From: a virus
Lineage: Duplodnaviria; Heunggongvirae; Uroviricota; Caudoviricetes
Reading direction: 5' to 3' (one strand)
Length of the DNA stretch: 29,277 nt
Virus record (IMG/VR): IMGVR_UViG_2660238524_000011
Positions 1,240-15,906 of the stretch are shown here, one piece after another. The notes under the pieces are model-generated. The model was not told the DNA's origin. It did not search any database and saw only the letters and a program-made list of their open reading frames with translations. The translations under genes were made by a program, and so were the position numbers. Numbering within the stretch: the first letter of the stretch is position 1; the number at the start of each line of letters is the position of its first letter.

Positions 1240-1919
1240 CTGGCCTCCAGTTTCTGTTGTTCCTGCCCACTGACCGGGCGGTGCAGTCTGACGTTCTGCC
1301 CTTCACGAAACCCCGCATAGCGCGAGGCGTCGCCATTGCGGCTTCTTCCCGGTTTACGCGCCCTGGTGGTTTGCGTCTGCGGGTATTTATGTTCCAGCCA
1401 CTGCTGCATCAGTTCACGCTCATCATCGGTCAGGGCAAAGGACTGTATTTCACTGATAACGGCCAGCACCCAGCCTTCGGCAAACTGGTCTCCACGGCTG
1501 GTGCGGGTGGCGGTTTTTATTCTTTTGTTCTGTGCACTGATATACTGCTGACGCGCCTTTTTCAGCTGACGGGCCAGCACTTCCCAGGTGTATGCAGCCA
1601 GTGCCGCACGTTCCCGGTTGCCGTAGAACCCCACAGACGGATGCGTGCCGGGGTGAATGATGGAGTTAACACCAAATACCTCGCGGATGATGTTCATCAG
1701 GCCCAGCATGTAGCGCGGTGGACGGAGACTGCCTGTCGGCCAGTAGTGACTGATGGTTTCATCAATATCACTCATAGCAATGTCGGAATGTGTGATGCCG
1801 TGAACATCCATCAGTTTACGGGCTCGGCGCAGTGCCAGAGCGGCCTCGTGCGGGTTGCCGGATGCGGCCAGCGCCAGCAACTTTTTCAGTTTCTCAATGT
1901 GTTTATTCTGGTCTGTCAT
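1236..1919 (-). CDS. DUF2786-like domain protein
   Basis: Motif LLALAASGNPHEAALALRRARKLMDVHGI matches my recollection of DUF2786. The ATG at 1919 has a GGAGA RBS and overlaps the upstream stop (ATGA); the track start at 1955 lacks an RBS. Confidence 0.5.
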   Translation of the reverse strand: MTDQNKHIEKLKKLLALAASGNPHEAALALRRARKLMDVHGITHSDIAMSDIDETISHYWPTGSLRPPRYMLGLMNIIREVFGVNSIIHPGTHPSVGFYGNRERAALAAYTWEVLARQLKKARQQYISAQNKRIKTATRTSRGDQFAEGWVLAVISEIQSFALTDDERELMQQWLEHKYPQTQTTRARKPGRSRNGDASRYAGFREGQNVRLHRPVSGQEQQKLEAR

Positions 1920-2131
1920 TGTTCTGTATCTCCGGTATTTTTCTGCCGTTTCCATGCCCGGACAGCGTCGGACAGCTCTTTCAGGCTGTATGCTGCTTTA
2001 AGCTTTTCCCATAACCACTGTGTTGTTATGTGCATCAGCAGGGCAGCCAGGGCTGCCCCCGCACTGAGGCATGTCGCCAGGCCAGTAAGAATCAGTGTCC
2101 ATGCGGTGATTTCCCTGAGTATGTCAGCCAT
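1916..2131 (-). CDS. small membrane protein (71 aa, hypothetical)
   Basis: GGGAGG RBS 6 nt upstream of ATG at 2131. Hydrophobic core ITAWTLILTGLATCLSAGAALAALL. Confidence 0.45.
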   Translation of the reverse strand: MADILREITAWTLILTGLATCLSAGAALAALLMHITTQWLWEKLKAAYSLKELSDAVRAWKRQKNTGDTEQ

Positions 2132-2145
2132 TGAATGCCTCCCGG

Positions 2146-2442
2146 TTACTCGTTCGTGTAAATCACGCCCAGTCGTGCAGCCAGACGTTCCAGTTTTTTC
2201 TGTTTGTGGAAGTCAATCAGCCGGTCCATCCCCTGAAGGCGCAGTTGCTCTGTCATGATTTCCACGTCTGCCAGCTCTGCCGCGAGGTCACTTTCGCTGC
2301 CCTGTCCGTTCAGGTTGCGGGCGGCACTGGCCGCCAGTTCAGCGGCCTCTTCTGCCAGTTTCAGGGCCTGTGCGTCCGGCCCGAAACGCTGCAGGGCCAG
2401 ACGGTAGAGGGCGGTGCGGGTGAGTTCGGTGTTTCGTGTCAT
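2146..2442 (-). CDS. hypothetical early protein (98 aa)
   Basis: Co-oriented and tightly spaced within the early operon; Ala/Leu-rich helical protein. Confidence 0.4.
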   Translation of the reverse strand: MTRNTELTRTALYRLALQRFGPDAQALKLAEEAAELAASAARNLNGQGSESDLAAELADVEIMTEQLRLQGMDRLIDFHKQKKLERLAARLGVIYTNE

Positions 2443-2451
2443 GCCGCGCCC

Positions 2452-2724
2452 TCAGTGCTTCCGGCTGACGGTGATGTGCAGGCCGCCTTCTGCAGTGGTT
2501 TCCATCCGGTACGGCACCTCATGCTCTGCCGTGTGGGTGAGTGTGTTCATCAGTACCTGCAGGGCAGCCTCCTTTCCGTTGGTCGCCACAATGGCCTGTG
2601 TGGCCATGCTGATTAGCGCCGTCAGGACGTGCTTCACATCGGTGAGGTCGCGGCATTCACACTCGTTGACATAGTGTTCAACAAGGGTTCGGGTGCGCTG
2701 TCGTGCTTCCTGTGGGGTAATCAT
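2452..2724 (-). CDS. hypothetical early protein (90 aa)
   Basis: Co-oriented and tightly spaced; start overlaps the stop of 2721..2915 (ATGA). Confidence 0.4.
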   Translation of the reverse strand: MITPQEARQRTRTLVEHYVNECECRDLTDVKHVLTALISMATQAIVATNGKEAALQVLMNTLTHTAEHEVPYRMETTAEGGLHITVSRKH

Positions 2725-2915
2725 TGCGAGTCCTCCCTGTCAGGGCGGGAGAATTCCATGACGGGCACGTCTGCCGAAAAATGCTGGCTGCAGTACGGGC
2801 AGACCAGGGTGACGCGTACCGCAGGGATGTGGTATTTACCGGACATCACGGCGATGGCGCTGTGAAAACGCAGGGCTGTTATATCCCTCTCGCACTGAAT
2901 ACATTTAAATATCAT
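2721..2915 (-). CDS. small zinc-ribbon protein (CxxC...CxxC)
   Basis: 64 aa with paired Cys motifs (CIQC ... CPYC). GAGGAG RBS upstream of ATG at 2915. Confidence 0.45.
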   Translation of the reverse strand: MIFKCIQCERDITALRFHSAIAVMSGKYHIPAVRVTLVCPYCSQHFSADVPVMEFSRPDREDSQ

Positions 2916-3012
2916 GATTTAATTCTCCTCTGTTTCCGGCGTGCAGAAGCCCGCGGCGCTGACGTCGGAATAAAAAAGAAAATGTTTTTATTAAATAATT
3001 AACGTGGTGTGT

Positions 3013-3543
3013 TTACTGCACATCCTGCTCAAAAGGAATTATTGAAAAATCCTCAATGTCGCTTTTAATGGAAATACCGGGAATATTTTTCACGGCCTCT
3101 TTTTCATTCAGGATAGCGTCTTTATTTATTTCCTCTTTTACACGAATAAAGCGCTCAAGCCCCAGACGTCTCAGTAATTCAATAACATTATCCGCCCCAC
3201 GGATACTGACTGATGGCGGACGGTTTCGCCACTGCACCTCGCCGGTGGTGAGGTTAGCGAACTTCACCTTCCCGTTGCCGGTCAGTTCATCACGGTGTGC
3301 CTCACACCATGTCTGAATACCGGACTGCAGTTCGGCCATGCGTTTTTTCAGGCTCTCGGTGAGCGGGGCATAACGTGCGGTGATATCGCCAATGGCGTCA
3401 TTCATTTCTGTTTCAGCCCTGACCAGTTCACGTTGTGCGTCACCGAGTAGTCTGATTCCCTCAATGACCTCTTCACGTGTCCCCGGCACCCAGAGTGCTG
3501 CTGCGGCCTTGATACGTTTTGCACCTTTTGTACTTTTTGCCAT
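3013..3543 (-). CDS. gam: Gam-like host-nuclease inhibitor (Mu Gam/Ku-like DNA end-binding protein)
   Basis: 176 aa; N-terminus MAKSTKGAKRIKAAAA and C-terminus GISIKSDIEDFSIIPFEQ closely resemble Mu Gam as I recall it. Confidence 0.8.
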   Translation of the reverse strand: MAKSTKGAKRIKAAAALWVPGTREEVIEGIRLLGDAQRELVRAETEMNDAIGDITARYAPLTESLKKRMAELQSGIQTWCEAHRDELTGNGKVKFANLTTGEVQWRNRPPSVSIRGADNVIELLRRLGLERFIRVKEEINKDAILNEKEAVKNIPGISIKSDIEDFSIIPFEQDVQ

Positions 3544-3570
3544 TTTTTATGATTTCTCCAGTTGTGCTGA

Positions 3571-3840
3571 TTACCACAAAGATTCCGGCCACACGACGCG
3601 ACAGCCGTGCAGTTCGAAAACGCCCTGACGGAAATATCCCCTGTGGTCATGTCCGGTATACAGATAACAGGCCTTTCCCTGCTCAAGCATGCGCATGCAA
3701 TGCGCACTCCGGGAAACGCGGATGACAGGTTTGTTACCCCTGATGGTGATGCTTTGTACATCCGTGTTCGTCGCCTTAAGCGCCATAATGGCTGACTGCA
3801 CTTTGCTGATTTGCTGGTTGATACCTGTGGTGGATTTCAT
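3571..3840 (-). CDS. hypothetical early protein at the position of Mu kil (89 aa)
   Basis: Start lies 2 nt past the B-like stop (TAATAATG context). Function assigned by position only. Confidence 0.35.
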   Translation of the reverse strand: MKSTTGINQQISKVQSAIMALKATNTDVQSITIRGNKPVIRVSRSAHCMRMLEQGKACYLYTGHDHRGYFRQGVFELHGCRVVWPESLW

Positions 3841-3842
3841 TA

Positions 3843-5009
3843 TTAAACCCCTTTGACAACGTCAGCGTTGACCTGTGGAACCCCGATTTCAGCGGCCAGA
3901 TTCATGGCGGCTATTACCAGGTTACTGACGGCCAGCGGATACAGCAGGCTGACCATATTTTTACGGTGACTTCCCGGATTGCTCAGGCGGGCACGTATGG
4001 CATCCACTGCACCGGCGTCCATAATGTCCGTCAGCTGTTTACCGGCCCGTTGCAGTTTGAACGTCAGAAATTCTTCAAGGTTATTGTCCAGAGGCAGAAG
4101 TTCGACCACCTCACAGCGCTGAACGACTTCACGGACTTCCATATTGCGTTCAGACAGTTTTGTCGCCAGTTCCGGCTGGCCAATCAGCACGATGGACAGC
4201 AGTTTTTTGAAACCGGACTCCAGCTCAAAAAAGCGTTTGAGGTGTTTCAGTGTCGGAATGGGCAGACTGTGGGCCTCCTCAATCACCAGAACGTGGCTGA
4301 ACCCCGCCTGGCTGCTGTCTTTCAGGACGCGATGCAACTGGCGAAAACGGGCGTCCTGACTGCGTCTGATGCTTTCCAGTGGTGCGATGGTACTGATAAT
4401 GGCTTCGGCAATAGCTGCTGCCTTCAGGGTTTTCCCTTTCACATCGTTGTCTTCCATAGCGATGATGTATGGCTCGATAACAATTACCGGCGCATTCTCG
4501 CGGTTGATACGTTCAGTCAGGTCGCGGCGCAGCGTGGATTTACCCGCACCGGACTCACCGATGACGGCCATAAACCCACCATGACGGGCTGTCTGGTACA
4601 GCGCCTCACGCACGTAGCGAATGTCCGGGGTGGTGAACACATCATCAGAACCCTGCATGGCTTCGTCGGCGAACGGGTCACGGAAAAGACCAAACGCTTT
4701 TTTGGTTGCTGGAAATAACACCTGTTTTTTGAGTAACATATTCTCTTCCTCACTGAGGCTCGTTTTATCTGTGGTACCCGCTGTACGGGGCGTGGCCGCG
4801 CCCTGTACAGCATCAAAACTCTTCGTTGTATCAATCCCCTGACTTTCCAGCCAGGACGCAAGACGCCGGCGCACTTCTCCGGGGCTGGTGCGGGGCCACG
4901 CGTTATGATTCACAATCTGGGCCAGCGTGGCCTCAGAAACATCGACAGCTCTCGCCACCACCGCCTGTGGAATACGGGCCTCTTTCAGTTGCTGCTTCAG
5001 TACCAGCAT
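3843..5009 (-). CDS. transposition helper ATPase (MuB-like, AAA+ P-loop)
   Basis: Walker A VIGESGAGKST; located immediately downstream of the transposase. GAGGAGG RBS 5 nt upstream of ATG at 5009; the track start at 5048 would overlap the A gene by 29 nt. Confidence 0.7.
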   Translation of the reverse strand: MLVLKQQLKEARIPQAVVARAVDVSEATLAQIVNHNAWPRTSPGEVRRRLASWLESQGIDTTKSFDAVQGAATPRTAGTTDKTSLSEEENMLLKKQVLFPATKKAFGLFRDPFADEAMQGSDDVFTTPDIRYVREALYQTARHGGFMAVIGESGAGKSTLRRDLTERINRENAPVIVIEPYIIAMEDNDVKGKTLKAAAIAEAIISTIAPLESIRRSQDARFRQLHRVLKDSSQAGFSHVLVIEEAHSLPIPTLKHLKRFFELESGFKKLLSIVLIGQPELATKLSERNMEVREVVQRCEVVELLPLDNNLEEFLTFKLQRAGKQLTDIMDAGAVDAIRARLSNPGSHRKNMVSLLYPLAVSNLVIAAMNLAAEIGVPQVNADVVKGV

Positions 5010-5019
5010 GTTTCCCTCC

Positions 5020-6789
5020 TCAGTTGCCGTTAACAATGCTGATAACACTGCTGCGGGCCGGTGTGGTCAGCGTGGCCATGACTTCATCCAGTGCGGCTTC
5101 CGGTACGCCGTCCGGGTACTGTGCCGTTAACTGGCGGTAATGTTCCGGCGTCCAGGTAAGGCCGTCGGCGCTGAACTTATCGCGCAGGGCTTTCGCGGCC
5201 TCCACATGAGTCATGGGACGTTGTTCAGTGCGCGGCCCGCGTACGTCAGAGGCCTGACCACGCTTCGGCATATAGGCCGGAAGTGTGGTGTCGTCGATAT
5301 GTTTATACGGGTCAAGCCGCCCGCCGAACGGCAGCGCCTTCGCCTTGCGTGCGGCGGCTGCATCTGCGGCGTTGTCTGTACCGGTAACCAGCGCTTCGGT
5401 TTCTTTTGCCGCCATCTGTGCCGGGGTTTCCGGCAGGGCTTTGTAACTTTCGCCAAATACCGCCGCGCCTTCAGCAAAGCCAAACTCGTTCTTTCTGACC
5501 TCTTCGACCAGGAAGAACGTCTCGTGGCCGTCCTCACCGGTCAGAACCACCTGTGCCACATCGCTGCGCCATGGGTTACGGGTAATCATCAGTTTTTCAC
5601 CAACCAGTACGCCCGGTACCGTTGATACGTCAAATTCAGTGCCCCGGAACGAGACACGAAGTTTTGGCGTGACTTTGCGGAGTTCTGGTGCCGCCACAGC
5701 CAGTTCACGACATACCTCAACGGAAGGCGCTTTTTTCAGCTGCTCAGCAGTAATCTTCAGCCAGATATCCGTGCGGGTTTTACCGTGGCGGCTGTGAACA
5801 GCCGTGGCGTTAAAGTGGCTGCGCCATTTCGCGGCCAGCGCGTTGAGTTCTTCCAGACTGTGAACCGGCCGGAACTTCAGACCCGGCTCCAGCTTGCGTT
5901 CGATAATGTCACGCGCCTTTTCCACCTGTCCGGTGGCGCGGGCGTTATGCGGCTTGTGCGCTATCAGGTCGATGCCCAGTGAGCGGCACATGTTTTTCGT
6001 CATACCCGCGGTGTTTGCCGAGCCGGGGTCGAGATAGAGTATTTTCGGCACGCCGTGCAGCACGTCTGCGCCGCCACGCTCCTGCATGGCGTTGATAAGC
6101 ACAGAACACAGGTTCTCACCTGATTCCGCGCCCGTCACATACTCAACGTAAATCCAGCCGCTGGCATGGTCGGTAATCTCGTAACTCCACACGCGGTCAC
6201 TGGCGATACGGGCAAGGTTAGCGGGCTTGTTCTTGTAGAACTTCGCGCTGTCCATCACCTGCAGCCCTTTATGTCCATTGCTCAGGTAGTAAAGCGTGCA
6301 GAGTGAGGCGTCAATCTGCCAGACATGATTGGGATGCAGACTGGCCACTTCGGTATGTGGTGCAGGGGCATCCAGTTGTTCCGGGTGCAGGCCATAGTTA
6401 CGCAGAGCACGGCTGATGGCATCTTCAGACAACGGGAAAAACTCACTGGTGGTTTCATCTGTTCTGCCTGCGGTGATAAAGCCGTTAGCCCGCAGGGTTT
6501 CCACTGCATCTGCGATGGAATAGAGACGCTTACCGTTCTTGCGGGTGGCCTCACGCAGTGTGGCAGATATCAGCGCGGCTTCGTCGCGGGTCAGGGCGCT
6601 GCGCCCGGCATCGGCGCGTTTTTTGCGTTTATCAGTCACAGATACCTCCTTCAGCCTGCGCAGCAGAGTGGCGCGGGACATGCCAAGTTCAGCACAGGCA
6701 GCGTCGTATATTGCACCGCGTTTACCATGCCCCGCGTCACGTGCCGCGCGGGCGACATAAACCAGTCGTTCAGTCAGGGCAGCATTCAT
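5020..6789 (-). CDS. DDE transposase (Mu A-like, RNase H-fold integrase core)
   Basis: 589 aa with N-terminal HTH region and candidate DDE residues in HVWQIDAS, LYLDPGSANT and HNARATGQVE. Confidence 0.8.
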   Translation of the reverse strand: MNAALTERLVYVARAARDAGHGKRGAIYDAACAELGMSRATLLRRLKEVSVTDKRKKRADAGRSALTRDEAALISATLREATRKNGKRLYSIADAVETLRANGFITAGRTDETTSEFFPLSEDAISRALRNYGLHPEQLDAPAPHTEVASLHPNHVWQIDASLCTLYYLSNGHKGLQVMDSAKFYKNKPANLARIASDRVWSYEITDHASGWIYVEYVTGAESGENLCSVLINAMQERGGADVLHGVPKILYLDPGSANTAGMTKNMCRSLGIDLIAHKPHNARATGQVEKARDIIERKLEPGLKFRPVHSLEELNALAAKWRSHFNATAVHSRHGKTRTDIWLKITAEQLKKAPSVEVCRELAVAAPELRKVTPKLRVSFRGTEFDVSTVPGVLVGEKLMITRNPWRSDVAQVVLTGEDGHETFFLVEEVRKNEFGFAEGAAVFGESYKALPETPAQMAAKETEALVTGTDNAADAAAARKAKALPFGGRLDPYKHIDDTTLPAYMPKRGQASDVRGPRTEQRPMTHVEAAKALRDKFSADGLTWTPEHYRQLTAQYPDGVPEAALDEVMATLTTPARSSVISIVNGN

Positions 6790-6792
6790 TGG

Positions 6793-7707
6793 TTATGCCT
6801 CCAGCCCGTTAATCTGTGGCGTCGGCTCAGTCAGCCATGAAGGCGCTGCATTGCCTGTTGGCTCGTCCGGCAGGTCAAATGTGGAGCGCAGGCTACGCGC
6901 TGTGCTTTCCAGTTGACAGACCAGGCCTGCCATGAAGTCTCTGGGGGTATCAATCATGTTTTCAGCACAATATGCGCACAGCGTCTCAAAAGCGCTGGAC
7001 AGTCGGACGGCGATAGCAGATTCCGCCTCAACCGCTAATGCTGTTACTTCCGCCCGCAGCTTCTTAACCTCCTCATCAGGCTCAGGCGGCTGAATACGGG
7101 ATTTCTTCTCCAGTCTGGTGGAGAGTGAATCTATTTTTTCATTTTTGTCGGCGAGTACGCGCTGTTGTGCTGCGTTGGTTTCGCGCGCTTCGCGCAGGGC
7201 CTGACGCAATTCACGTACTGACATGCGATCAACGTCGTCAAGCGTCAGGCCGGCAACTGTGCCGCCGTCGGCCAATTCATCAAGTTCTTCATTATCCAGA
7301 ACCATCAGGTCGTACAGTTTGGCTTTCCCCAAAACGCTCAACGTTGAGCGTTTTGTTGGCTCATCACCTTCTCCCAAAAACTTCATACTGGCTTGCATCA
7401 TGCGGCGAGCAACTTGTGGTGCAAGTCCGAGTTCATTTTCTAAAATGTTTGTAAAATCACCGTGTGGCTCATTTTCTTTTAAGATGATCAGCCGCTTACC
7501 CGCTTCCAGCATAGATTCAGCACTCTGCGCCATATAAAAACGTGCTTCGTGAACAATGCGATCACGTTCATAAGGCAGTCCATCACCAAACTGCTGCATA
7601 ATTTCCATGCGATGCTGTGTCATAGCGTTCAAATTGACATTGATGTTATCTGACAGCGGAACCTCAACATTCAGTTCAGTGTTAACGGGTGATTTGGTGC
7701 GTCCCAT
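6793..7707 (-). CDS. conserved Mu-like early protein (304 aa, coiled-coil; copy 1)
   Basis: Immediately upstream of the A gene; paralog at 11101..12021 (about 85% identity by eye). Acidic and coiled-coil rich. Confidence 0.55.
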   Translation of the reverse strand: MGRTKSPVNTELNVEVPLSDNINVNLNAMTQHRMEIMQQFGDGLPYERDRIVHEARFYMAQSAESMLEAGKRLIILKENEPHGDFTNILENELGLAPQVARRMMQASMKFLGEGDEPTKRSTLSVLGKAKLYDLMVLDNEELDELADGGTVAGLTLDDVDRMSVRELRQALREARETNAAQQRVLADKNEKIDSLSTRLEKKSRIQPPEPDEEVKKLRAEVTALAVEAESAIAVRLSSAFETLCAYCAENMIDTPRDFMAGLVCQLESTARSLRSTFDLPDEPTGNAAPSWLTEPTPQINGLEA

Positions 7708-7717
7708 TGATTACTCC

Positions 7718-8026
7718 TTACAAACGACTACCTGAAATAACTCGTTGGTTGATTTCGTTAATACGATCCTGTGCACGCGCCATCTCGTGACTGTGAGCCA
7801 TGGCGATCTGTAGTAACTGGATTCCCGGTGCGAAACGTCCGTTCTCTAATTTCATGGCCAGTCCCTCTTCAATAAGGGTATTAAGTGCTCGATTGATATT
7901 CGCCGGGGACTCCCCCAGGGCTGATGCCAGTTCACCGTTAGAAACACCGTTCAGAGCATGACCGCGTAGAGCTTTGAGTACACGTAGGATGCGGGTCCCA
8001 GAACTGGAAATATTTACTTTACTCAT
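7718..8026 (-). CDS. winged-helix HTH DNA-binding protein (copy 1)
   Basis: Track ORF 7718..8089 trimmed to the ATG at 8026 (MSKVNISSSGTRILRVLKALRGH) by analogy with copy 2. HTH-like segment NGELASALGESPANINRALNTLIEEG. Confidence 0.5.
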   Translation of the reverse strand: MSKVNISSSGTRILRVLKALRGHALNGVSNGELASALGESPANINRALNTLIEEGLAMKLENGRFAPGIQLLQIAMAHSHEMARAQDRINEINQRVISGSRL

Positions 8027-8078
8027 GTCACATTTCCATTTTTGCAATATGTGATAACCTGTTGCATATGTGGAAAAT

Positions 8079-8267
8079 TTATGCCGCATTTGACGTGGGT
8101 TTTAATCCCAGTTTTACGGCAATTTCATGGGCTTTGCCGTAACGAGCTTTGGTCTGTCCATTGAGAACACGATAGACCTCATTGCGGCTGTAGCCGTGTT
8201 CTTCGGCCCAGCGGGTAAACGTGATACCACGCTGACGGAAGAGATTTTTAACTTGTTCGGAAGTCAT
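8079..8267 (-). CDS. Ner-like small DNA-binding regulator (first gene of early operon, copy 1)
   Basis: 62 aa with HTH segment GITFTRWAEEHGYSRNEVYRVLNG. Divergent from the repressor gene and first gene of the leftward operon. Confidence 0.55.
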   Translation of the reverse strand: MTSEQVKNLFRQRGITFTRWAEEHGYSRNEVYRVLNGQTKARYGKAHEIAVKLGLKPTSNAA

Positions 8268-8353
8268 TGTTGTCTCCTTTGTTGATGCAATGATGTTTGT
8301 TTTATATGTGATAGATTATGAGAACTATTGTTCTCATTGTCAATGAGGTTTAT
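8268..8353. promoter_or_regulatory. divergent promoter/operator region 1, with palindrome ATGAGAAC-N4-GTTCTCAT at 8318-8337
   Basis: Perfect 8-bp inverted repeat with 4-bp spacer read directly from the sequence, between divergent Ner-like and repressor genes. TTGATG at 8282-8287 is a possible -35 element. Confidence 0.5.
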
Positions 8354-8779
8354 GTGAATTTTGATTCTCTTTGCGCGTCGCGGTTCAAAGCTGAGCGTTC
8401 GCGGTTATCACTCAAGCAGGCTGAAGTAGCAGCCCTTTGTGGCGTTTCAAGAGAAATGTGGGGGAAATATGAACGAGGGGTTGCTGTTCCCGGAGGTGAG
8501 TTACTTGCAGCCTTTGCAAGAATTGGGGCCAATGTACAGTTCATTCTTACCGGGGAGTCATCAGGTATAACTTTATCACGTGATGAAATGGAGTTACTGC
8601 AGCACTACCGGCAGGCACCATTACAGGTCAAAGGTTCAGTTTTGTCGGCCTTGACTACTGGCTCCTCCAGAGAACGGGCGGAACAGGTTATTCATGGAGA
8701 TGTTCTGGGGAATGTTATCAAAGGTAACGTAACCATAGGAACAGGTGGAATAATGAACAAAAATACCAAGAGAAGATGA
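8318..8779 (+). CDS. XRE/Cro-CI-type HTH repressor (immunity repressor 1)
   Basis: HTH LSLKQAEVAALCGVSREMWGKYERG. The track ATG at 8318 lies inside the operator palindrome and lacks an RBS; in-frame GTG at 8354 preceded by GAGG is an alternative start. Stop overlaps the next start (ATGA). Confidence 0.65.
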   Translation: MRTIVLIVNEVYVNFDSLCASRFKAERSRLSLKQAEVAALCGVSREMWGKYERGVAVPGGELLAAFARIGANVQFILTGESSGITLSRDEMELLQHYRQAPLQVKGSVLSALTTGSSRERAEQVIHGDVLGNVIKGNVTIGTGGIMNKNTKRR

Positions 8780-9762
8780 GTAAAGAGAAGCAAACAGTTA
8801 ACGGGGATGTGGGTAACGTTGTCAGCGGTGATGTTACCATTCATAACTATTCTGCTGACATACTTCCTTCGGCCCAGCAACCAATTTCGTTGCTGCAAAA
8901 ACGCGATTTACACAGATTGATGGATGAATTGGTTGATCTGGGGGAAAGTAAGCGCGAGCTATGGATGACGATCCACACGAAACTTAATACCAAAACAGTT
9001 AATGAAATGACTGCGGCTGATTATCATGGTGCGGTTGAGATCCTTCAGAGATATGCACAACAGATCCAGAATATGAAGGACTGTAATCTTCTGGTCAGCA
9101 AAATAATGGCGCTTACTGACCCTGGGTATCGTCTTGACCGTGACAGATACTGTCTGAAGCATTTCGGTACAACCCATCTTAAAGGCCTAGACAAAGAGCA
9201 GTTGCAGGCTGTGTTTGGTTATTTTGATGATCTGCTGAATATTCGTGATGAGAGTAAAACTCTATCACCTCCATCGGAAAGCGGTGCAAAATCAGTCGCA
9301 ACTGTACCAACCAGAAGCCGGAAGCCTCATGTAGTAGTGTTGGGGGGAGTGTTAGTTCTTGTAGCAATATTTTTCGTGGGAATGATTGTGTTCGCTGGTA
9401 AATGGGGAAATGCCAAAGCAGTAGCTTCTACTGAAACCAGCGTTTTTAACATTAAAACCAACGATAAAATAATAGAAGATTCCATCCCCGCACTGCGCAG
9501 CATGTTTCCAGGGTTAAATAAGTACTCAGATGATTTCCATTCGGTTTCAAGCTACAAGCAAAAAACGGGCTGGCATACCCTTAAATTTACTGTATCAGCA
9601 AAGGCATCCGTCCCCGAAAATTATAGTGTTAAGGGCAAGGTTTGTTACATTAACATAAGCCCTGATGGTAGTTATGCTCGGGTTTTGACTGCTCCATGTC
9701 GTTCACTGCTACTTGATCAGCAAAGCACTCCTGACAGTAAATACCGTTTTATTCTTAAATAG
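8776..9762 (+). CDS. membrane-anchored protein of unknown function (328 aa)
   Basis: Single hydrophobic segment VVVLGGVLVLVAIFFVGMIVFAG between a roughly 165-aa N-terminal domain and a roughly 120-aa C-terminal domain. Visibly AT-rich relative to neighbours. Confidence 0.55.
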   Translation: MSKEKQTVNGDVGNVVSGDVTIHNYSADILPSAQQPISLLQKRDLHRLMDELVDLGESKRELWMTIHTKLNTKTVNEMTAADYHGAVEILQRYAQQIQNMKDCNLLVSKIMALTDPGYRLDRDRYCLKHFGTTHLKGLDKEQLQAVFGYFDDLLNIRDESKTLSPPSESGAKSVATVPTRSRKPHVVVLGGVLVLVAIFFVGMIVFAGKWGNAKAVASTETSVFNIKTNDKIIEDSIPALRSMFPGLNKYSDDFHSVSSYKQKTGWHTLKFTVSAKASVPENYSVKGKVCYINISPDGSYARVLTAPCRSLLLDQQSTPDSKYRFILK

Positions 9763-9843
9763 AAAATAACAGCTGAATTACCATGGGATCAGAAAAAAGA
9801 CAAAGGCGGCATCATGCTGCGTTCTGAAATTTTAATGTAAAAG

Positions 9844-10434
9844 GTGATGAACATGGCAGGGATTCAGGTTATCGCAGGAAGTTTTCCTAAAGGGTGGGCA
9901 AGCATGGGGTTCGGTACCATCGTGTTTGCCAAAAAACCAAAACAAGGCTTTCCTGAAAATATTGTATTAAATCTGAAAGAAGAGCTTTTATCGATTGAAC
10001 TTGCGGATAGTGAAGAGGAAAGCCGTATAGGTAAGGCGGCAGGCGCAGGTTTGCTTGGTGGATTAATCTTTGGTGGTGCAGGGTTGGTCATTGGAGGTTT
10101 GCTTGGTGCGGCGGACAAGACGAAAAAAACTATCACTTTTAAGGCAATGTTTACGGGAAATAGGTTACTTCTGGCTAAAACAGATTCAAAAACTTTTGTA
10201 AAACTTCAGTCAATTGCTGCTGATAATGCCCATAACGCATCTGTAATCAACATGAAGCAAACTAACAGGGGCGATGTTTCTTCTCGTAAACAACTAACAG
10301 AAAATCCACAGCAGCAAGACTTACCTGCGCCCGCTACAACAGTAAAAATGACTGCCAAAGATAAGTTAGAATCGGCTCTTGGGCTGGGAATCATCGTTAT
10401 AGCTGTTTGGGCAATAATACACTTCTTTTTTTAG
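9844..10434 (+). CDS. glycine-zipper membrane protein of unknown function
   Basis: Gly-rich segment GAGLLGGLIFGGAGLVIGGLLGAA and C-terminal hydrophobic helix. Likely start is the ATG at 9853, preceded by AAGG. Confidence 0.5.
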   Translation: MMNMAGIQVIAGSFPKGWASMGFGTIVFAKKPKQGFPENIVLNLKEELLSIELADSEEESRIGKAAGAGLLGGLIFGGAGLVIGGLLGAADKTKKTITFKAMFTGNRLLLAKTDSKTFVKLQSIAADNAHNASVINMKQTNRGDVSSRKQLTENPQQQDLPAPATTVKMTAKDKLESALGLGIIVIAVWAIIHFFF

Positions 10435-10435
10435 T

Positions 10436-10460
10436 GCAGCCCTTCAGGGCTGTTTCTGTT
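10436..10460 (+). terminator. putative intrinsic terminator
   Basis: Hairpin GCAGCCC-ttca-GGGCTG (stem one side one base longer) followed by TTTCTGTT, directly after the stop of 9844..10434. Confidence 0.5.
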
Positions 10461-10471
10461 CAGGAGGTATC

Positions 10472-10768
10472 TTAAGGATTATCCGGGGCGTTTTCCTGTT
10501 TGCCGTACTTCGGAGACGAACAACATTCTGTTGGCTGACCGGTGAGTTTACGTAACTCCTTCATGAGCAGCTCCTGATCGTAAACTGTCATCAGTGCCGC
10601 AATGGTGGCATGCAGTGCATCGGGCAGTATCCAGGGACGCAGCAGAGTGGCGCGGGACATGCCAAGTTCAGCACAGGCAGCGTCGTATATTGCACCGCGT
10701 TTACCATGCCCCGCGTCACGTGCCGCGCGGGCTGTTTCAACCAGTTTTTCAGTCAGTGCCGGGGTCAT
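10472..10768 (-). pseudogene. chimeric in-frame fusion: transposase N-terminus (44 aa) joined to an internal fragment of the P-loop gene
   Basis: 10638-10732 is identical to 6659-6753 (A gene 5' region). 10493-10636 matches 14970-15113 with 3 mismatches in 144 bp. Product is MTPALTEKL...SRATLL followed by RPWILPDALHATIAALM. Confidence 0.55.
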
Positions 10769-10783
10769 AGCTTGTCTTCCCTG

Positions 10784-11101
10784 TTATCCGATTCTGGCGG
10801 CAATTTTTCTGGCGAGGTCGCACAGTGTTTCGCCATCGCAGGTTTTCACCACGGTATTTACCGGTTGCGGTGCAACTACCGGGCGTAATGCTGACTGATT
10901 CTGCAGACGTCTTATCTGCTGCATCAGCATCACCTCCATCGTCAGTACAAACGGGTGCGTCTCCTGTGCGGGTACGCAGATTTCACCGGAAGGGGTCACC
11001 ACGCGGAAACCCTGCACCATCTCCGGCAGCAGATTACACAGTGCGTGCCCCAGTGCCTCCGGGCTGTCCATCAGGGTATTTTGTGTGTTATTCGTATTCA
11101 T
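10784..11101 (-). CDS. hypothetical protein (105 aa), present only in control module 2
   Basis: Start abuts the stop of 11101..12021. No counterpart between the 304-aa gene and A in copy 1. Confidence 0.35.
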   Translation of the reverse strand: MNTNNTQNTLMDSPEALGHALCNLLPEMVQGFRVVTPSGEICVPAQETHPFVLTMEVMLMQQIRRLQNQSALRPVVAPQPVNTVVKTCDGETLCDLARKIAARIG

Positions 11102-12021
11102 TACTGCATATCCTCCGGTCGGTTGATTTCAGGTTCCGGTTCGGTCAGCCAGGCGGGGGCATCGTTACCCGATGGAGCGGCCTCAAGGTCAAACGTCTCA
11201 CGTAATGCATGAACACTGCGTTCAATCTGGCAGACCAGACCGGCCATGAAATCTCTGGGGGTATCGATCATGTTTTTGGTGCAGTATTCACACAGGGTCT
11301 CAAAAACACTGGACAGCCGGACGGCGATAGCCGATTCGGCCTCAACCGCTAATGCCGTCACTTCCGCCCGCAATTTTTTCAGTTCTTCGTCTGGCGGCGG
11401 AGGTTGCAGGCGCGATTTCTTCTCCAGTTTTGTGGCCAGTTCGTTGATTTTTTCGTCCTTTCCGGCAAGCACCTGTTGCTGAGCTGCGTTGGTTTCGCGC
11501 GCTTCACGCAGGGCGGCCTTCAGTTCGCGGCTGGTCATGCGATCAATATCATCAAGCGTTGCACCGGCGACGGTTCCACCATCAGCTAATGCGTCGAGTT
11601 CTTCGTCATCCAGAACCATCAGTTCATATAACTTGGTTTTTCCCAAAACGCTCAGCGCTGAGCGTTTTGGCTGTTCATCTCCATTGCCGAGAAATTTCAC
11701 GCTGGCCTGCATCATGCGACGAGCTACCTGTGGTGCTAATCCGAGGTCGTTTTCCAGAATATTTGTGAAATCACCATGCGGTTCATTTTCTTTTAAGATG
11801 ATCAGCCGCTTACCCGCTTCCAACATAGATTCAGCACTCTGCGCCATATAAAAACGTGCTTCGTGAACGATGCGTTCACGTTCATAAGGCAGTCCATCAC
11901 CAAACTGCTGCATGATCTCCATGCGATGCTGTGTCATGGCATTCAGGCTGACGTTGAGATCATCCGACAGCGGTACATCGGCGTTCAGTTCAGTGTTAAT
12001 CGGTGATTTGGTACGTCCCAT
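11101..12021 (-). CDS. conserved Mu-like early protein (306 aa; copy 2)
   Basis: Paralog of 6793..7707. Confidence 0.55.
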   Translation of the reverse strand: MGRTKSPINTELNADVPLSDDLNVSLNAMTQHRMEIMQQFGDGLPYERERIVHEARFYMAQSAESMLEAGKRLIILKENEPHGDFTNILENDLGLAPQVARRMMQASVKFLGNGDEQPKRSALSVLGKTKLYELMVLDDEELDALADGGTVAGATLDDIDRMTSRELKAALREARETNAAQQQVLAGKDEKINELATKLEKKSRLQPPPPDEELKKLRAEVTALAVEAESAIAVRLSSVFETLCEYCTKNMIDTPRDFMAGLVCQIERSVHALRETFDLEAAPSGNDAPAWLTEPEPEINRPEDMQ

Positions 12022-12031
12022 TGATTACTCC

Positions 12032-12340
12032 TTACAAACGACTACCTGAAATGACACGTTGGTTAATTTCGTTAATACGATCCTGTGCACGTGCCATCTC
12101 GTTACTGTGGGCCATGGCGATCTGCAGTAACTGGATGCCCGGTGCAAAACGTCCGTTCTCCAGTTTCAGAGCCAGCCCTTCTTCAATGAGGGTGTTGAGT
12201 GCCCGGTTGATGTTTGCCGGTGACTCGTGCAGTGCTGTCGCCAGTTCACCGTTAGAAATACCGTTCAGGGCATGACCGCGCAGCGCTTTGAGTACCCGGA
12301 GGATGCGACTGCCGGAGCTTGAAACATTCGTCTTACTCAT
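12032..12340 (-). CDS. winged-helix HTH DNA-binding protein (copy 2)
   Basis: Paralog of 7718..8026. Start at the ATG at 12340 (MSK...) with AGAGG RBS 7 nt upstream. Confidence 0.5.
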   Translation of the reverse strand: MSKTNVSSSGSRILRVLKALRGHALNGISNGELATALHESPANINRALNTLIEEGLALKLENGRFAPGIQLLQIAMAHSNEMARAQDRINEINQRVISGSRL

Positions 12341-12392
12341 CTGCATACCTCTTTTGCGATATGTGATAACCTTTTACAAAGACTCAAAATAT

Positions 12393-12581
12393 TTAGGCCG
12401 CCTGAGCTGTTGATTTCAGTCCCAACTTCACGGCGATTTCATGGGATTTACCGTAACGGGCTTTGGTCTGCCCGTTGAGAACGCGGTATACCTCATTGCG
12501 GTTGTAGCCGTTTTCTTCTGCCCAGCGGGTGAAAGTGATCCCGCGCTGGCGGAAGAGAGCTTTGACTTGTTCTGCAGTCAT
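12393..12581 (-). CDS. Ner-like small DNA-binding regulator (copy 2)
   Basis: 62 aa, about 87% identical to 8079..8267. Confidence 0.55.
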   Translation of the reverse strand: MTAEQVKALFRQRGITFTRWAEENGYNRNEVYRVLNGQTKARYGKSHEIAVKLGLKSTAQAA

Positions 12582-12674
12582 CGTTGTCTCCTTTGTTGAT
12601 GCAATGATGTTTGCCTTATATGTGTTAGATTATTGCTCATAATTATGAGCATATCAAGATAGAGATTCACTTTT
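12582..12674. promoter_or_regulatory. divergent promoter/operator region 2, with 18-bp palindrome TGCTCATAATTATGAGCA at 12634-12651
   Basis: Perfect palindrome read from the sequence; a third half-site TATGAGCA overlaps the repressor 2 start codon at 12674-12681. Confidence 0.5.
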
Positions 12675-13031
12675 ATGAGCAAAGATATAGGAGAGCGCGT
12701 TATTTCTGTGAGGAAGAAAGCAGGGTTGAACCAGAGAGAATTTGCAGCTCGTTTAGGTATTTCTAATGGTGGTATCAGTCAGATTGAAAATGGAAAGGCG
12801 ATGCCTGGAGGGGAGTTTCTGTTAAAGATGCATCAAGAGTTTAATGTTGATGTAAATTGGTTGCTCACTGGAATGAGCACAGATGGTATGACTAGAAACC
12901 AGAATCAAATTTCCCCAGAAAAACAAAAACTAATAGATACTTTTGACGACATGACACCAGACCAACAACGCTCATTTCTTGAGATTGGGCGATTCTATAC
13001 TCAGCCAAAACCAGGAAAAATCGCAGGCTGA
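12675..13031 (+). CDS. XRE-type HTH repressor (immunity repressor 2)
   Basis: HTH LNQREFAARLGISNGGISQIENG. Unrelated to repressor 1 outside the HTH core. Confidence 0.65.
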   Translation: MSKDIGERVISVRKKAGLNQREFAARLGISNGGISQIENGKAMPGGEFLLKMHQEFNVDVNWLLTGMSTDGMTRNQNQISPEKQKLIDTFDDMTPDQQRSFLEIGRFYTQPKPGKIAG

Positions 13032-13116
13032 TACTGACCCGGACACAAAGGACAGGTGGTTGATCTGGATGCTTTCAGAAAACATCGCCAGTGACATAGT
13101 GGAAGTTGTTTGGTTT

Positions 13117-13148
13117 ACCGGAAAGCATTGTGCTTTCCGGTTTTGTTT
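13117..13148 (+). terminator. putative intrinsic terminator
   Basis: 10-bp stem ACCGGAAAGC/GCTTTCCGGT with 5-nt loop, followed by TTTTGTTT. Downstream of repressor 2 and abutting the Dam stop codon. Confidence 0.55.
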
Positions 13149-13910
13149 CAGAAGTTGCAGATTAGCAGTTCACGGCGCGGCGTGGGTTTACCCGCCAGAC
13201 TGTAGTTGATATTCACTGTCTGTATGTTCAGTCCAGTGAACACCTCGCGCATCTGCGGGATGTCGTTCACCGAAATTATCATTTTTCCTCTGATGCACCG
13301 GGCCAGCTCTGCCAGCCGCGAGTAGTTCCCTTCAGGAAAATCCACACCATAGCCTTCCGTACCCAGGTACGGTGGGTCGCAGTAGAACAGCGTGTGCGGA
13401 CGATCATAACGCTCAATGCACTGTTGCCAGTCCATGTGTTCTATGACTGTTCTGGAAAGCCGCAGGTGTGCCGCTGACAGTTCTTCTTCAATACGTAGCA
13501 GGTTGAAGCGTGGCGGGGATGTGGTGGAGGTACCGAAGCTGTGCTCTGCCACCTTGCCGCCAAACGCCTGCTTCTGAAGGTAGTAGAACCGTGCCGCACG
13601 CTGGATATCCGTCAGTGTTTCTTCCGGGGTGATCTGCAGCCATTTGTAGATCTGACGGCTGACCAGCGCCCATTTGAACTGGCGGACAAATTCTTCCAGG
13701 TGATGCTTTACCACCCGGTACAGATTCACCAGTTCACCGTTGATATCATTGATGACTTCGATCTTGCCGGGTGTCTTAAGAAAATAGAGCGCTGCTGCCC
13801 CACAAAACGGCTCCACATAACATTCATGCGCCGGAAACAGCGGCAGAATGTGTTTTGCAAGGCGGCGTTTGCCACCAATCCACGGCACGATGGGTAATGT
13901 CTGCATTTTC
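13148..13910 (-). CDS. dam: DNA adenine methyltransferase (Dam-like, D12-class N6-MTase)
   Basis: DPPY catalytic motif (FYCDPPYLG) and N-terminal SAM-binding region (IVPWIGGKRR ... VEPFCGAAA). Track ORF trimmed to the ATG at 13910 (MKMQTLPIVPW). Confidence 0.75.
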
Positions 13911-14102
13911 ATAATCTGCAAGCCTTTTACAATTATTAAAAAATATGGCAGTCTGGTCAGGTCTCGCGAGACTGACTGAACCTTGGTCGGCTCACAGCGC
14001 ATTCCTGTGGGGCGATGACCAGCCCGGCTTTCGGGTGCCGGGCTGGTCGTTCTTTCATGATGCGGCAGGGATGGCGGGATTTCTGTTAATGTGGTTTAGG
14101 GA

Positions 14103-14318
14103 TTATCCGGGGCGATTTTCTGACCTTATCCGGTCCAGGGCATAAGTAATACCTTCTGCAAAAACAGAAGTATCAAACTGCTTTTGTATTCCCTGAAAAT
14201 GAAAAGCGGCACGACAGACACTCAGTTCTCCGCGGTATAACCGGATAATATCTTCCAGAACATTGTTCACTGCTTCAGCACGGCGCTGATGTTCTGTTAA
14301 CGTTAATCGGGGATTCAT
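14103..14318 (-). CDS. hypothetical protein (71 aa)
   Basis: Strong AAGGAG RBS 7 nt upstream of the ATG at 14318. Confidence 0.45.
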   Translation of the reverse strand: MNPRLTLTEHQRRAEAVNNVLEDIIRLYRGELSVCRAAFHFQGIQKQFDTSVFAEGITYALDRIRSENRPG

Positions 14319-14721
14319 GATGCACTCCTTAAATGATGATTTTTATGTACTCACCGGCAAAATATTCTGCCGATTACTGAACACGCATCCGGCACCTCAG
14401 GTTTTGATTTATTCTGGTTTTTTCGATATCCCGGACCAGGTTGATCACGACCAGAAAAAGTGCCGGTGTTTTATTGATACGCTGATATGGCTTCGGGATA
14501 ACAGCTATATTCGTTACTCTCAGTTGCTGGCTGTGGGAGCGGCTGATGTCGTCCTCACGGAAAAAACGCTCTGTCTGCTCAATGCCATGCCGACCTTTCT
14601 GCAGCCCCGGCCCGTACCATTTAAAGAGTCACTTCTGGATGCAGTAAAAACCGGTGAAAATGCAGTCATCGCTGAATGCGTATCCCGGATTATGCGTTAC
14701 GTGTTTAATGAACGTAAGTGA
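14317..14721 (+). CDS. hypothetical protein (134 aa)
   Basis: ORF fills the 378-nt gap between minus-strand genes. Its start codon overlaps the divergent start of 14103..14318 (CATGATG); 3' end converges on and overlaps the P-loop gene. Weak GGGGA RBS. Confidence 0.35.
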   Translation: MMHSLNDDFYVLTGKIFCRLLNTHPAPQVLIYSGFFDIPDQVDHDQKKCRCFIDTLIWLRDNSYIRYSQLLAVGAADVVLTEKTLCLLNAMPTFLQPRPVPFKESLLDAVKTGENAVIAECVSRIMRYVFNERK

Positions 14722-15425
14722 GGTTTATCCGCTGTCTGCATAATCCCGATAGCCAGTGCGAGGGGAAGTAATTCCGGGGAAACTCTTTCAAACAGCGATG
14801 CCCATTCTCCTCTCGCCATCACTCTGTCCAGCCCGCCCTCCAGTTGCATTTCAGCAATCTTCCTGATTTCCCGGAACAACGCCGCTTTGATCTCTTCATG
14901 CTCAGCTTTATTTTCCGGTGTCAGAAGGTATTCGTCGAAGAACCGGGGAGGCTGGTTAATCGGGATGTGTTCCTGTTTGCCGTACTTCGGGGACGAACAA
15001 CATTCTGTTGACTGACCAGTGAGTTTACGTAACTCCTTCATGAGCAGCTCCTGATCGTAAACTGTCATCAGTGCCGCAATGGTGGCATGCAGTGCATCGG
15101 GCAGTATCCAGGGTTGCCGGCCCGTGGGGCATATAACATCCAGCAGCTCATTCGTCCGACAGATACGCTCCTCGCCGTATGACAACAGGCCCTGTCCCGT
15201 GTATTCCTCCAGCCTGATCACTGTGCCAGCCCGTGGTTTCTGCCATGTGCTCAGATCATCCCCACTCATACGGCGCTCACCGTCCACGTCTGCGGCGTCG
15301 ACAATGACGCTGTTTCCGAATTCCTGTTTCACCACTTCCTCTATTCGCGCCAGTACGTAACTTTTACCGCTGCCCACAGGACCGGACACGGTGACAGTGA
15401 TGACCGGATTCAGTGTCTGCGTCAT
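14697..15425 (-). CDS. P-loop NTPase-like protein of unknown function (242 aa)
   Basis: N-terminal Walker A-like SGPVGSGKSY. GAGGAG RBS 8 nt upstream of ATG at 15425. Confidence 0.5.
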   Translation of the reverse strand: MTQTLNPVITVTVSGPVGSGKSYVLARIEEVVKQEFGNSVIVDAADVDGERRMSGDDLSTWQKPRAGTVIRLEEYTGQGLLSYGEERICRTNELLDVICPTGRQPWILPDALHATIAALMTVYDQELLMKELRKLTGQSTECCSSPKYGKQEHIPINQPPRFFDEYLLTPENKAEHEEIKAALFREIRKIAEMQLEGGLDRVMARGEWASLFERVSPELLPLALAIGIMQTADKPHLRSLNT

Positions 15426-15555
15426 ATCGTATTCTCCTCTGTGAATAATTCATCGTTTATCCTGCACATCCCGTATCCCCGGCTCTCTTAACGCGCTTTA
15501 AAATCCTTCGCGCCCTGTATTTGTGATGCTGTCTCCACCAGATAAGGAGACACAC

Positions 15556-15906
15556 ATGAAAAACCTGAAAAAATTCATTCCCCCTGTTAAAAAACCTCGC
15601 CTCAGCGGCTGGCTGCTGACCTCAGTGCTGTTGCTGGGCACCATCGCTCTGGTCTCACCACAGCAGCTGCCTGTTGTGATCTACAAGCTGGCACTCATCA
15701 CGCTGGCAGCAGTGCTGGGTTACTGGCTTGACCGTTCGCTCTTCCCCAAAGCCCGTCCCGGTCAGTACCTGAAACATGACGACAGGCTGATGGCTGAAGG
15801 GCGTTTCCCGGTACAGACCGGCCTTCACCTGGTGTTTTCTGCTGCGTTAATCCGCCGTGCACTGATTGTTGCAGCGGTCTGCCTGGCTGTTGCGATGGGG
15901 CTTTAA
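15556..15906 (+). CDS. holin-like membrane protein (three predicted TM segments)
   Basis: AAGGAGA RBS before the ATG at 15556 (MKNLKK...). Located immediately upstream of the endolysin. Confidence 0.45.
   Translation: MKNLKKFIPPVKKPRLSGWLLTSVLLLGTIALVSPQQLPVVIYKLALITLAAVLGYWLDRSLFPKARPGQYLKHDDRLMAEGRFPVQTGLHLVFSAALIRRALIVAAVCLAVAMGL

Follow-up and report, generated by a model that had tools for sequence, protein, structure and literature searches.

We describe an adenine methyltransferase gene in a 29,277-nucleotide stretch of viral DNA (record IMGVR_UViG_2660238524_000011, Caudoviricetes), here called the window, together with the RNA leader that precedes it. The open reading frame (ORF) lies on the minus strand at 13148..13912 (254 amino acids; stop codon 13148-13150, ATG 13912-13910), and directly upstream of its ATG there is a conserved structured leader (13913..14056, minus strand; covariance-model match 13901-14056). 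We consider it probable that the gene, known as M.EcoMIV, is a stand-alone D12-class orphan in the accessory slot of a BcepMu-like prophage, that it is nearly silent in the lysogen and serves anti-restriction in lytic growth, and that the leader gates its expression. The methylase gene is not new; it is an ordinary, catalogued phage orphan methylase that has had a name since 2015. The leader lies just outside the coordinates of a preliminary description of this DNA and may be the sole potentially new element. That description had placed an orphan Dam-like adenine methyltransferase at 13148-13910, and the observation is confirmed as real and well past chance expectation; the location was right, and the end fell 2 nucleotides (nt) short of the A of the ATG (13912).

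The methylase would be nearly silent in the lysogen and made in lytic growth, when replicating phage DNA would be methylated before packaging, so that the progeny would resist restriction in the next host. In this respect the enzyme would be a functional analogue of Mu Mom. Expression would be gated post-transcriptionally through the leader, in which the Shine-Dalgarno region is predicted to pair with an upstream strand (helix P2, the off state); the same upstream strand could pair instead with a further-upstream copy of the 3' strand (helix H2, the on state). In about one quarter of the relatives the leader would control com, and Com would then switch the methylase on, as for mom in Mu.

Identity and proposed role of the methylase

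The protein was matched by the Pfam profile PF02086 (MethyltransfD12) with E=6e-29 and 102 bits against a cutoff of 22, over residues 11-234 and profile positions 1-248 of 253. Strong matches were also obtained to PADLOC MTase_II PDLC03253 (E=6e-112) and PHROG 56 (E=1.5e-100), and in the PDB to DpnM (2dpm, 6.5e-17) and EcoDam (2g1p, 5.5e-14); the nearest solved relatives are DpnM, EcoDam and T4Dam (E=1e-17 to 1e-14). Catalytic motif IV, DPPY, is found at residues 179-182 (13367..13378, minus strand) and does not vary in any aligned homologue, EcoDam and T4Dam among them. By alignment with homologues, the motif for binding S-adenosylmethionine (AdoMet), motif I, is F36-C-G-A-A (13793..13807, minus strand), an FxGxG-like sequence in which the last Gly is Ala, F36 and G38 being invariant across the subfamily, EcoDam and T4Dam. 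Motif I, the recognition hairpin and DPPY follow one another in the alpha-group arrangement. Judged by profile and motifs, the protein is a D12-class (alpha-group) N6-adenine DNA methyltransferase, and the D12 class with a DPPY motif given in the preliminary description is borne out by the profile, by the motif as read in the sequence and by the PDB and PADLOC matches.

All 254 residues are identical to those of WP_000783854.1 of E. coli sequence type 131 (ST131) strain EC958, in which the gene sits in a prophage between aroA and ycaL with the same gene order as in the window. Forde et al. (2015; PMC4659465) named this gene of prophage Phi2 M.EcoMIV (EC958_1101) and listed it as a PF02086 type II orphan and 'predicted Dam homolog', with the provisional REBASE class type IIA; according to these authors, no recognition site is known for any M.EcoMIV homologue of more than 65% identity. 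Their report makes no mention of the leader, of a linkage to Com or of the lost Dam hairpin residues. Protein, prophage and gene order are the same in Phi2 and the window, and the window differs in carrying, 3 kb leftward, a second immunity module as well. Of 5,426 complete E. coli genomes, 546 (~10%), the pandemic ST131 clone included, carry the gene together with the leader, 388 of them at 99% identity or more, and throughout Enterobacterales homologues of 85-95% identity are found in great number. A prophage orphan methylase this common contributes little by itself.

In mid-log LB cultures of the EC958 lysogen, transcription of M.EcoMIV was significantly below that of dam, and no motif in the single-molecule real-time (SMRT) sequencing data was assignable to M.EcoMIV, every N6-methyladenine (m6A) motif found being given to other enzymes (PMC4659465). 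The suggestion of the preliminary description that such a methylase can also affect host gene regulation is disfavoured in the lysogen by this low transcript level and by the lack of an assigned motif. It is improbable, in our opinion, that the methylase is an epigenetic regulator of lysogenic conversion, which would methylate the host chromosome in the lysogen and alter host expression. The gene does adjoin the immunity region, a frequent place of lysogen-expressed morons, and a 65%-identical homologue gave a moderate RNA-seq signal in the Burkholderia phi1026b lysogen (PMC2920897). However, the identical EC958 gene is expressed far below dam and leaves no m6A motif unclaimed, the ribosome-binding site lies in a conserved leader predicted to sequester it, and in other phages the gene is placed in late operons.

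That methylation was never attributed to M.EcoMIV (PMC4659465) would also fit an inactive relic, an explanation that we regard as very improbable, since the catalytic motifs are all intact, more than 100 residues are invariant between homologues at 64-95% identity (from enteric, Pseudomonas, Vibrio and Burkholderia phages) and the wider family comprises 674 clusters (50% identity) at E<=1e-30. Among the homologues there are also unusual architectures. In P0001 (nr, E. coli, 320 amino acids), a variant of the methylase, about 66 C-terminal residues are tandemly duplicated internally, a second DPPY included. P0123, P0138, P0141, P0149, P0186, P0235 and P0267 are giants of 1,000-2,500 amino acids with two to four full or partial copies of the methylase domain at ~30% identity, presumably multi-methylase fusions of mobile elements.

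The anti-restriction role is suggested by analogy with phage relatives. Homologues stand in late-gene surroundings: beside Com in phage B3, past the tail genes in VP882 and past the lysis genes in phiE125. In B3 the Com gene ORF47, annotated as a translational regulator, precedes and overlaps ORF48, whose product is 64% identical to the window protein. We collected 80 loci from different species with homologues 62-87% identical and clustered all flanking ORFs; a 60-70-residue ORF with a CxxC...CxxC pattern stands directly before the methylase in 19 of them, and two such ORFs tested are true Com proteins of PF10122 (E=4e-17 and 4e-22). The late-gene position and the Com linkage in relatives support late expression and a Mom-like self-protection, and the anti-restriction reading is strengthened by this recurrent linkage to Com, the regulator of mom. 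An anti-restriction role of the methylase can be inferred on these grounds.

The likeness to the com-mom operon of Mu consists in a modification gene behind Com in B3 and in 19 of the 80 relatives, and it has limits. Mom is an unrelated enzyme making acetamido-adenine, the window is without com, and the leader stands upstream of com rather than between com and the methylase. As predicted for the leader, the translation start region of mom in Mu is sequestered in RNA structure. Other phages offer closer counterparts of the enzyme itself: phiE125 gp27, phi1026b gp26, KS9 gp25 and VP882 Dam are orphans with 64-66% identity to the window protein over the full length, and they differ in phage type (lambda-like siphovirus, telomere phage) and in host. 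Of these, phiE125 gp27 is reported to be an active adenine methylase (Woods et al. 2002), which would also speak against an inactive relic.

Several points weigh against a lytic anti-restriction enzyme that is silent in the lysogen. No com gene was found in the window, in which the only CxxC...CxxC ORF (2721-2915) has no PF10122 match. Our literature search found no data on activity or specificity of the methylase or its close homologues, and the AlphaFold model (from a 17-sequence alignment, 85-95% identical) had a pLDDT of 56.8, too poor for use. Lysogen silence is known from one RT-PCR condition in one paper (PMC4659465), and the phi1026b homologue mentioned above was moderately expressed in its lysogen. 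The product of the ORF at 2721-2915 (minus strand) is a 64-residue zinc-ribbon protein (CxxC-28-CPxC) of the early operon, outside the Com family.

The conserved leader

The leader is read from the minus strand, as are all of the elements described here. Helix H1 (14017..14048) is a GC-rich hairpin of 12-13 base pairs (bp) built on a perfect 12-nt inverted repeat, with double-sided changes in 13 of 13 pairs. It is followed by the switch region (13989..14009), in which CACAG (14009-14005) and CUGUG (13997-13993) make up H2 and CUGUGAGCC (13997-13989) is a strand of P2. Helix P3 (13979-13983 with 13950-13954) encloses helix H3 (13955..13977), an imperfect palindrome with a one-base bulge. The Shine-Dalgarno region (13916..13928) holds AAAGG at 13927-13923 and the 3' strand of P2, GGCUUGCAG, at 13924-13916. 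A short U/A helix stands before the AUG at 13912, and P2 and this U/A helix together cover the Shine-Dalgarno AAAGG.

Conservation across genera extends over the ~190 nt that separate the 71-residue upstream gene from the start of the methylase, and it is seen even in KP12, whose upstream gene has the reverse orientation. The conservation is structural: the hairpin sequences differ and the pairing is kept in Escherichia, Brenneria, Photorhabdus, Xenorhabdus, Iodobacter, Burkholderia, a Francisella metagenome-assembled genome and Vibrio phage VP882. In H3 both the pairing and the bulge are kept despite sequence change in Xenorhabdus, Photorhabdus, Brenneria, Iodobacter and Burkholderia.

A covariance model, R1, was made from 17 enteric copies (155 positions, 39 pairs) and searched on the window plus 84 loci (950 kb). 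It scored 146.4 bits at the window leader and gave full-length matches in 63 of the 85 sources at E<0.01. All matches lie on the methylase sense strand, their ends falling at the methylase start codon or, in loci with com, at that of com, with none elsewhere in the 950 kb. The leader was recovered upstream of the gene in VP882 (E=9e-13) and phiE125 (E=8e-6), and in Com-bearing relatives the 3' strand of P2 overlaps the com start codon (for example, L068). In the R1 alignment 89.7% of cells are paired, whereas shuffles reach 68.5% and slid controls 35-48%, and double-sided changes occur in 37 of 39 pairs with 524 compensatory cells against 153 expected, counts that are inflated by the fitting of the alignment to R1. 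The folding z-score is -5.3 for the window and -3.6 for Trabulsiella; the minimum-energy fold of the Trabulsiella leader is the P2 (off) form, and in that of the window H2 is formed. As an independent check, a 16-nt motif taken from the RNA alone was scanned in IMG/VR, with at least 120 sites found. Among the matches listed, the methylase subfamily is encoded within 1.3 kb downstream at 68 and Com at 4; of the other 49, just 3-5 have a detectable leader and the remainder are chance matches.

Leader and gene move as a cassette among Mu-like, P2-like, lambda-like and telomere phages, and the range of the leader covers gamma-, beta- and delta-proteobacterial prophages as well as phages B3, VP882, phiE125 and KP12. 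In many phages it begins straight after the stop codon of a late gene. One viral contig (L167) has a leader match of 40.8 bits at 7671-7814 with no methylase or com ORF downstream, the next gene being on the opposite strand; this leader may be a remnant after loss of the methylase. In Paraburkholderia and Burkholderia loci (L058, L074, L079, L084) a conserved palindrome, CAAAGTNACTTTG(ACC), is present about 45 nt upstream of the leader and may be a late-promoter or regulator site of that phage group. In the window, the 12-bp palindrome GTCTCGCGAGAC (13961-13972) was considered as a Mor/C-type activator site at about -41 of the promoter-like CTGACC-17-AATAAT. This candidate was dropped: the palindrome occurs a single time in the window, its arms covary around a conserved bulge elsewhere, and the -10 element is unconserved.

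The main evidence for a switch is the covariation of three strands. H2 and P2 share the central strand and are hence mutually exclusive, and the three strands change together between relatives (CACAG/CUGUG/..ACAG; CACUG/CAGUG/CAC..; CGCAG/CUGCG/CGCGG; CACAU/AUGUG/CACAU). H2 lies outside the model; it is 87.6% paired and has 36 compensatory cells where 9.4 would be expected, and none of 500 shuffles reached that number. In P2 all 9 pairs show double-sided changes. Such triple covariation is as predicted by a sequestor/anti-sequestor switch. On this comparative evidence the leader probably controls translation of the methylase. We propose more tentatively, and with somewhat less than even confidence, that it represents a class of cis-acting RNA switch not described before, one that accompanies this methylase subfamily and exposes or sequesters the ribosome-binding site of the first gene, be it methylase or com. 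Candidate triggers would be co-transcriptional folding kinetics, a phage protein on the long H1 hairpin, or a small ligand.

Could the element rather be a small antisense RNA with H1 as its terminator, or act at the DNA level, as an operator or recombination site within the mobile cassette? Some of its features point in this direction. H1 is a perfect palindrome followed, in enteric copies, by GUUCUUUC on the opposite strand, and a promoter-like TTTTCA-16-TACAAT is found in the antisense direction at 13906-13933; both the antisense promoter and the U-run are, however, unconserved outside the enterics. The mismatch counts, which compare G-U pairs with A-C mismatches on the sense strand, are divided. 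In H1 there are more A-C mismatches than G-U pairs (77 versus 33), whereas G-U pairs prevail in P2 (81 versus 32), P3 (34 versus 17) and H3 (32 versus 18). The antisense strands of two relatives gave Rfam matches to ctRNA_pGA1 (29.5 bits versus a threshold of 45) and SymR (28.4 versus 61), both below threshold. On the other side, whichever gene comes first downstream (methylase or com), P2 always takes in its ribosome-binding site or its start codon, and the three-strand covariation fits alternative RNA helices. We therefore consider an antisense RNA or a DNA site rather unlikely and favour the cis-acting sense-strand leader, against which must be counted the mismatch pattern of H1, the sub-threshold antisense matches, the inflated pairing counts, and the fact that no conserved sigma-70 promoter was found at a consistent distance upstream of the leader.

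As for novelty, Rfam 15 gave no match to the leader at E<=1 (12500-15600), only noise at E<=10 (13880-14130, 251 nt), and no gathering-level match in 12 related loci. A 'D12-methyl' RNA motif was reportedly described by Weinberg et al. in 2017; if it is included in Rfam 15, it does not match the leader. A possible identity with this motif lowers our confidence that the leader is undescribed. If the proposed switch is real, it would confine the synthesis of a potentially toxic methylase to a specific lytic moment or signal, and it offers a testable explanation of why M.EcoMIV and its kindred prophage methylases seem silent in methylome studies. It would also be a widespread regulatory RNA for phage anti-restriction genes and provide a handle for switching such enzymes on experimentally.

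Target specificity in comparison with Dam enzymes

The term 'Dam-like' used in the preliminary description holds for the family and the fold only; it does not imply GATC specificity, the GATC-reading residues being absent and the score falling below the cutoff of the E. coli Dam model. With EcoDam, T4Dam and DpnM the window protein shares the Pfam family, the alpha-group order, DPPY, AdoMet motif I and the hairpin length. It differs from them in overall sequence (20-26% identity) and in the residues compared for GATC recognition, none of R124/R116, N120, L122, K9 and R130 being conserved. The comparison was made by a HMMER pairwise alignment to EcoDam and by an independent MAFFT alignment with EcoDam and T4Dam (its sequence checked against PDB 1q0s), and the two alignments agree.

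The equivalent of the recognition hairpin comprises residues 117-136, FGGKVAEHSFGTSTTSPPRF (13505..13564, minus strand), in both alignments, and it is without the GATC-reading Arg. Its length is the same in the three enzymes (F117-G127 here, Y119-G129 in EcoDam and F111-G121 in T4Dam). EcoDam R124 and T4Dam R116 correspond to A122, a position that is A, A, D, T or E in the five members of the subfamily compared; EcoDam N120 corresponds to G118, L122 to K120 and K9 to P10, and EcoDam Y138 and T4Dam R130 correspond to F136, which is Leu in B3, VP882 and phiE125. In the structures of Horton et al. (2005/2006), EcoDam R124 and T4Dam R116 reportedly read the fourth base pair, and EcoDam K9 and T4Dam R130 the first G:C pair. 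Since the GATC-reading residues are absent, GATC specificity is not implied, and target recognition is probably not by Dam's way of reading GATC; the preliminary description had allowed for this in giving the site as 'GATC or other'.

A true Dam isoenzyme would methylate GATC and supplement the host Dam in fast lytic replication, for example so as to avoid MutH nicking or to time phage functions, and would not supply a new protective specificity. The protein passes the broad NCBIfam dam subfamily model TIGR00571, narrowly (116.6 bits versus a cutoff of 114.85), its best solved relatives DpnM, EcoDam and T4Dam are all GATC methylases, and there is a resemblance to T4Dam in the hairpin length (F117-G127) and in a T-T-x-P segment. 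Several lineages of methyltransferases have evolved GATC specificity. On the other hand, the position of the Arg for the fourth base pair is non-conserved (A/D/T/E) and both readers of the first base pair are unconserved. The E. coli Dam equivalog model NF008152 gave 67 bits against a cutoff of 441, the phiE125 record notes a likeness to the AlwI methylase, and REBASE provisionally assigns type IIA, that is, an asymmetric site, with no known site (PMC4659465). A GATC isoenzyme is in our judgment a serious but unlikely alternative to an enzyme that does not read GATC as Dam does.

The base composition of the window does not discriminate between these specificities. GATC is under-represented, with 73 sites observed against 129 expected (0.56) and a GATC-free stretch of 6 kb in the early operon (1139-7226), and such under-representation is typical of enteric mobile elements. 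CTAG is nearly absent from the window (2 versus 9.3 expected).

Membership in the Hia5 type was considered in view of the Mu-like context and rejected on indirect grounds, through the homologue of B3. Drozdz et al. (2012; PMC3299994) did not have B3 ORF48, the 64%-identical homologue, among the 1000 sequences nearest to Hia5. Like Hia5, Hin1523 and Nma1821, the window protein is an orphan DPPY adenine methyltransferase of Mu-like prophages and a distant kin of Dam; those enzymes are non-specific, with a divergent target-recognition region and an anti-restriction role (PMC3299994). The window protein probably belongs to a separate subfamily, and the Hia5 genes take the place of mom near the right-hand phage end and are not beside the immunity region. 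That GATC is not to be assumed matters for the reading of ST131 methylomes and for the use of phages against restricting hosts.

Gene boundaries, neighbours and prophage context

The methylase ATG at 13912 is preceded, 10 nt upstream, by the ribosome-binding site AAAGG. The open frame on the minus strand reaches 14002 and would give a protein of 284 residues if the ATG at 14002 were used; the methylase is annotated from this upstream ATG in the GenBank record of Escherichia phage PhiKM (PQ738613.1, 29908-30762 = window 13148-14002). We consider the longer start unlikely. RefSeq takes the 254-residue start in ST131 genomes, the extension overlaps the conserved non-coding leader and has an in-frame stop in relatives, and the extra 30 codons are open only through the insertion of 1 nt into a T-run, as compared with other genera.

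Convergent with the methylase is repressor gene 2 (12675..13031, plus strand), which codes for an HTH_3/CI-type protein (PF01381 4.6e-15, PF07022 1.8e-5). Its intrinsic terminator (13117..13149, plus strand) has an 11-pair stem followed by TTTGTTTC and abuts the methylase stop codon; the hairpin proper is 13117-13141, ending 7 nt from that codon, and read on the minus strand it has no T-run behind it. The ORF map and this hairpin with its T-run agree with the earlier placement of the methylase past the repressor 2 terminator and in the opposite orientation.

On its other side, beyond the leader, the methylase is neighboured by three genes of function-unknown PHROGs: a 71-residue gene (14103..14318, minus strand; phrog_4490), a 134-residue gene (14317..14721, plus strand; phrog_2266) and a 242-residue P-loop gene (14697..15425, minus strand; phrog_3787). 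Pfam, NCBIfam, PADLOC and PHROGs searches found no endonuclease or defence family in these neighbours, only noise otherwise. Across the 80 related loci no partner recurs except phage modules and Com, and a Pfam search of 141 flanking ORFs found no recurrent nuclease, the families found being helix-turn-helix (HTH), tail-fibre, capsid and terminase families. Divergent nucleases may escape profile searches, and the absence of any conserved neighbour argues against one. The earlier statement that no restriction endonuclease adjoins the methylase holds, and it extends from the window neighbours to the 80 related loci.

It is extremely improbable that the methylase is the modification half of a restriction-modification or defence system with the 71-, 134- or 242-residue neighbour as nuclease. 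Restriction enzymes are frequently unrecognisable from sequence, and the 242-residue neighbour has a Walker A motif and is functionally unannotated. These genes are, however, unlinked to the methylase: KP12 has it in the equivalent slot with different neighbours, phrog_3787 occurs also in a sister prophage type with other genes, and no methylase, in the slot, no partner recurs in the 80 loci, and PADLOC has no match in the neighbours.

The Walker A sequence of the 242-residue protein is GPVGSGKS, and some RefSeq records call it 'ABC transporter ATPase'; phrog_3787 is kept beside the lysis cassette in both BcepMu-like prophage types. The 134-residue gene (14317-14721) is antisense between two minus-strand genes, overlapping the 71-residue gene by 2 nt and the 242-residue gene by 25 nt, and is annotated in RefSeq and not in PhiKM.

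The window is a BcepMu-like (Bcepmuvirus) transposable prophage, of which 12300-15500 is 100% identical to PhiKM PQ738613.1. Its early operon runs rightward with genes for Mor, Gam, an ExeA-like ATPase, a DDE transposase, DUF3102, an IclR-type HTH protein and a BcepMu gp16-like protein, followed by a divergent HTH_3 repressor. The methylase occupies the accessory slot, with the immunity region on one side and the lysis cassette on the other.

A second immunity and accessory module is found at 6754-10732 (context 5020-12600), some 3 kb leftward of the first and different from it. It contains DUF3102 (6793-7707), an IclR-type HTH gene (7718-8089), an HTH repressor (8318-8779), phrog_10002 (8776-9762) and phrog_12025 (9844-10434), and it is 99.8% identical to the other BcepMu-like prophage type of 97 E. 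coli genomes. The tandem of both modules was found neither in PhiKM nor in any complete E. coli genome, and it may have arisen by recombination between two co-resident prophages or through chimeric assembly. On both sides of the second module stand identical 95-bp copies of the 5' end of the transposase gene in direct orientation (6659-6753 = 10638-10732), and in the chimeric ORF at 10472-10768 (minus strand) the N-terminus of the transposase is joined to a fragment from within phrog_3787.

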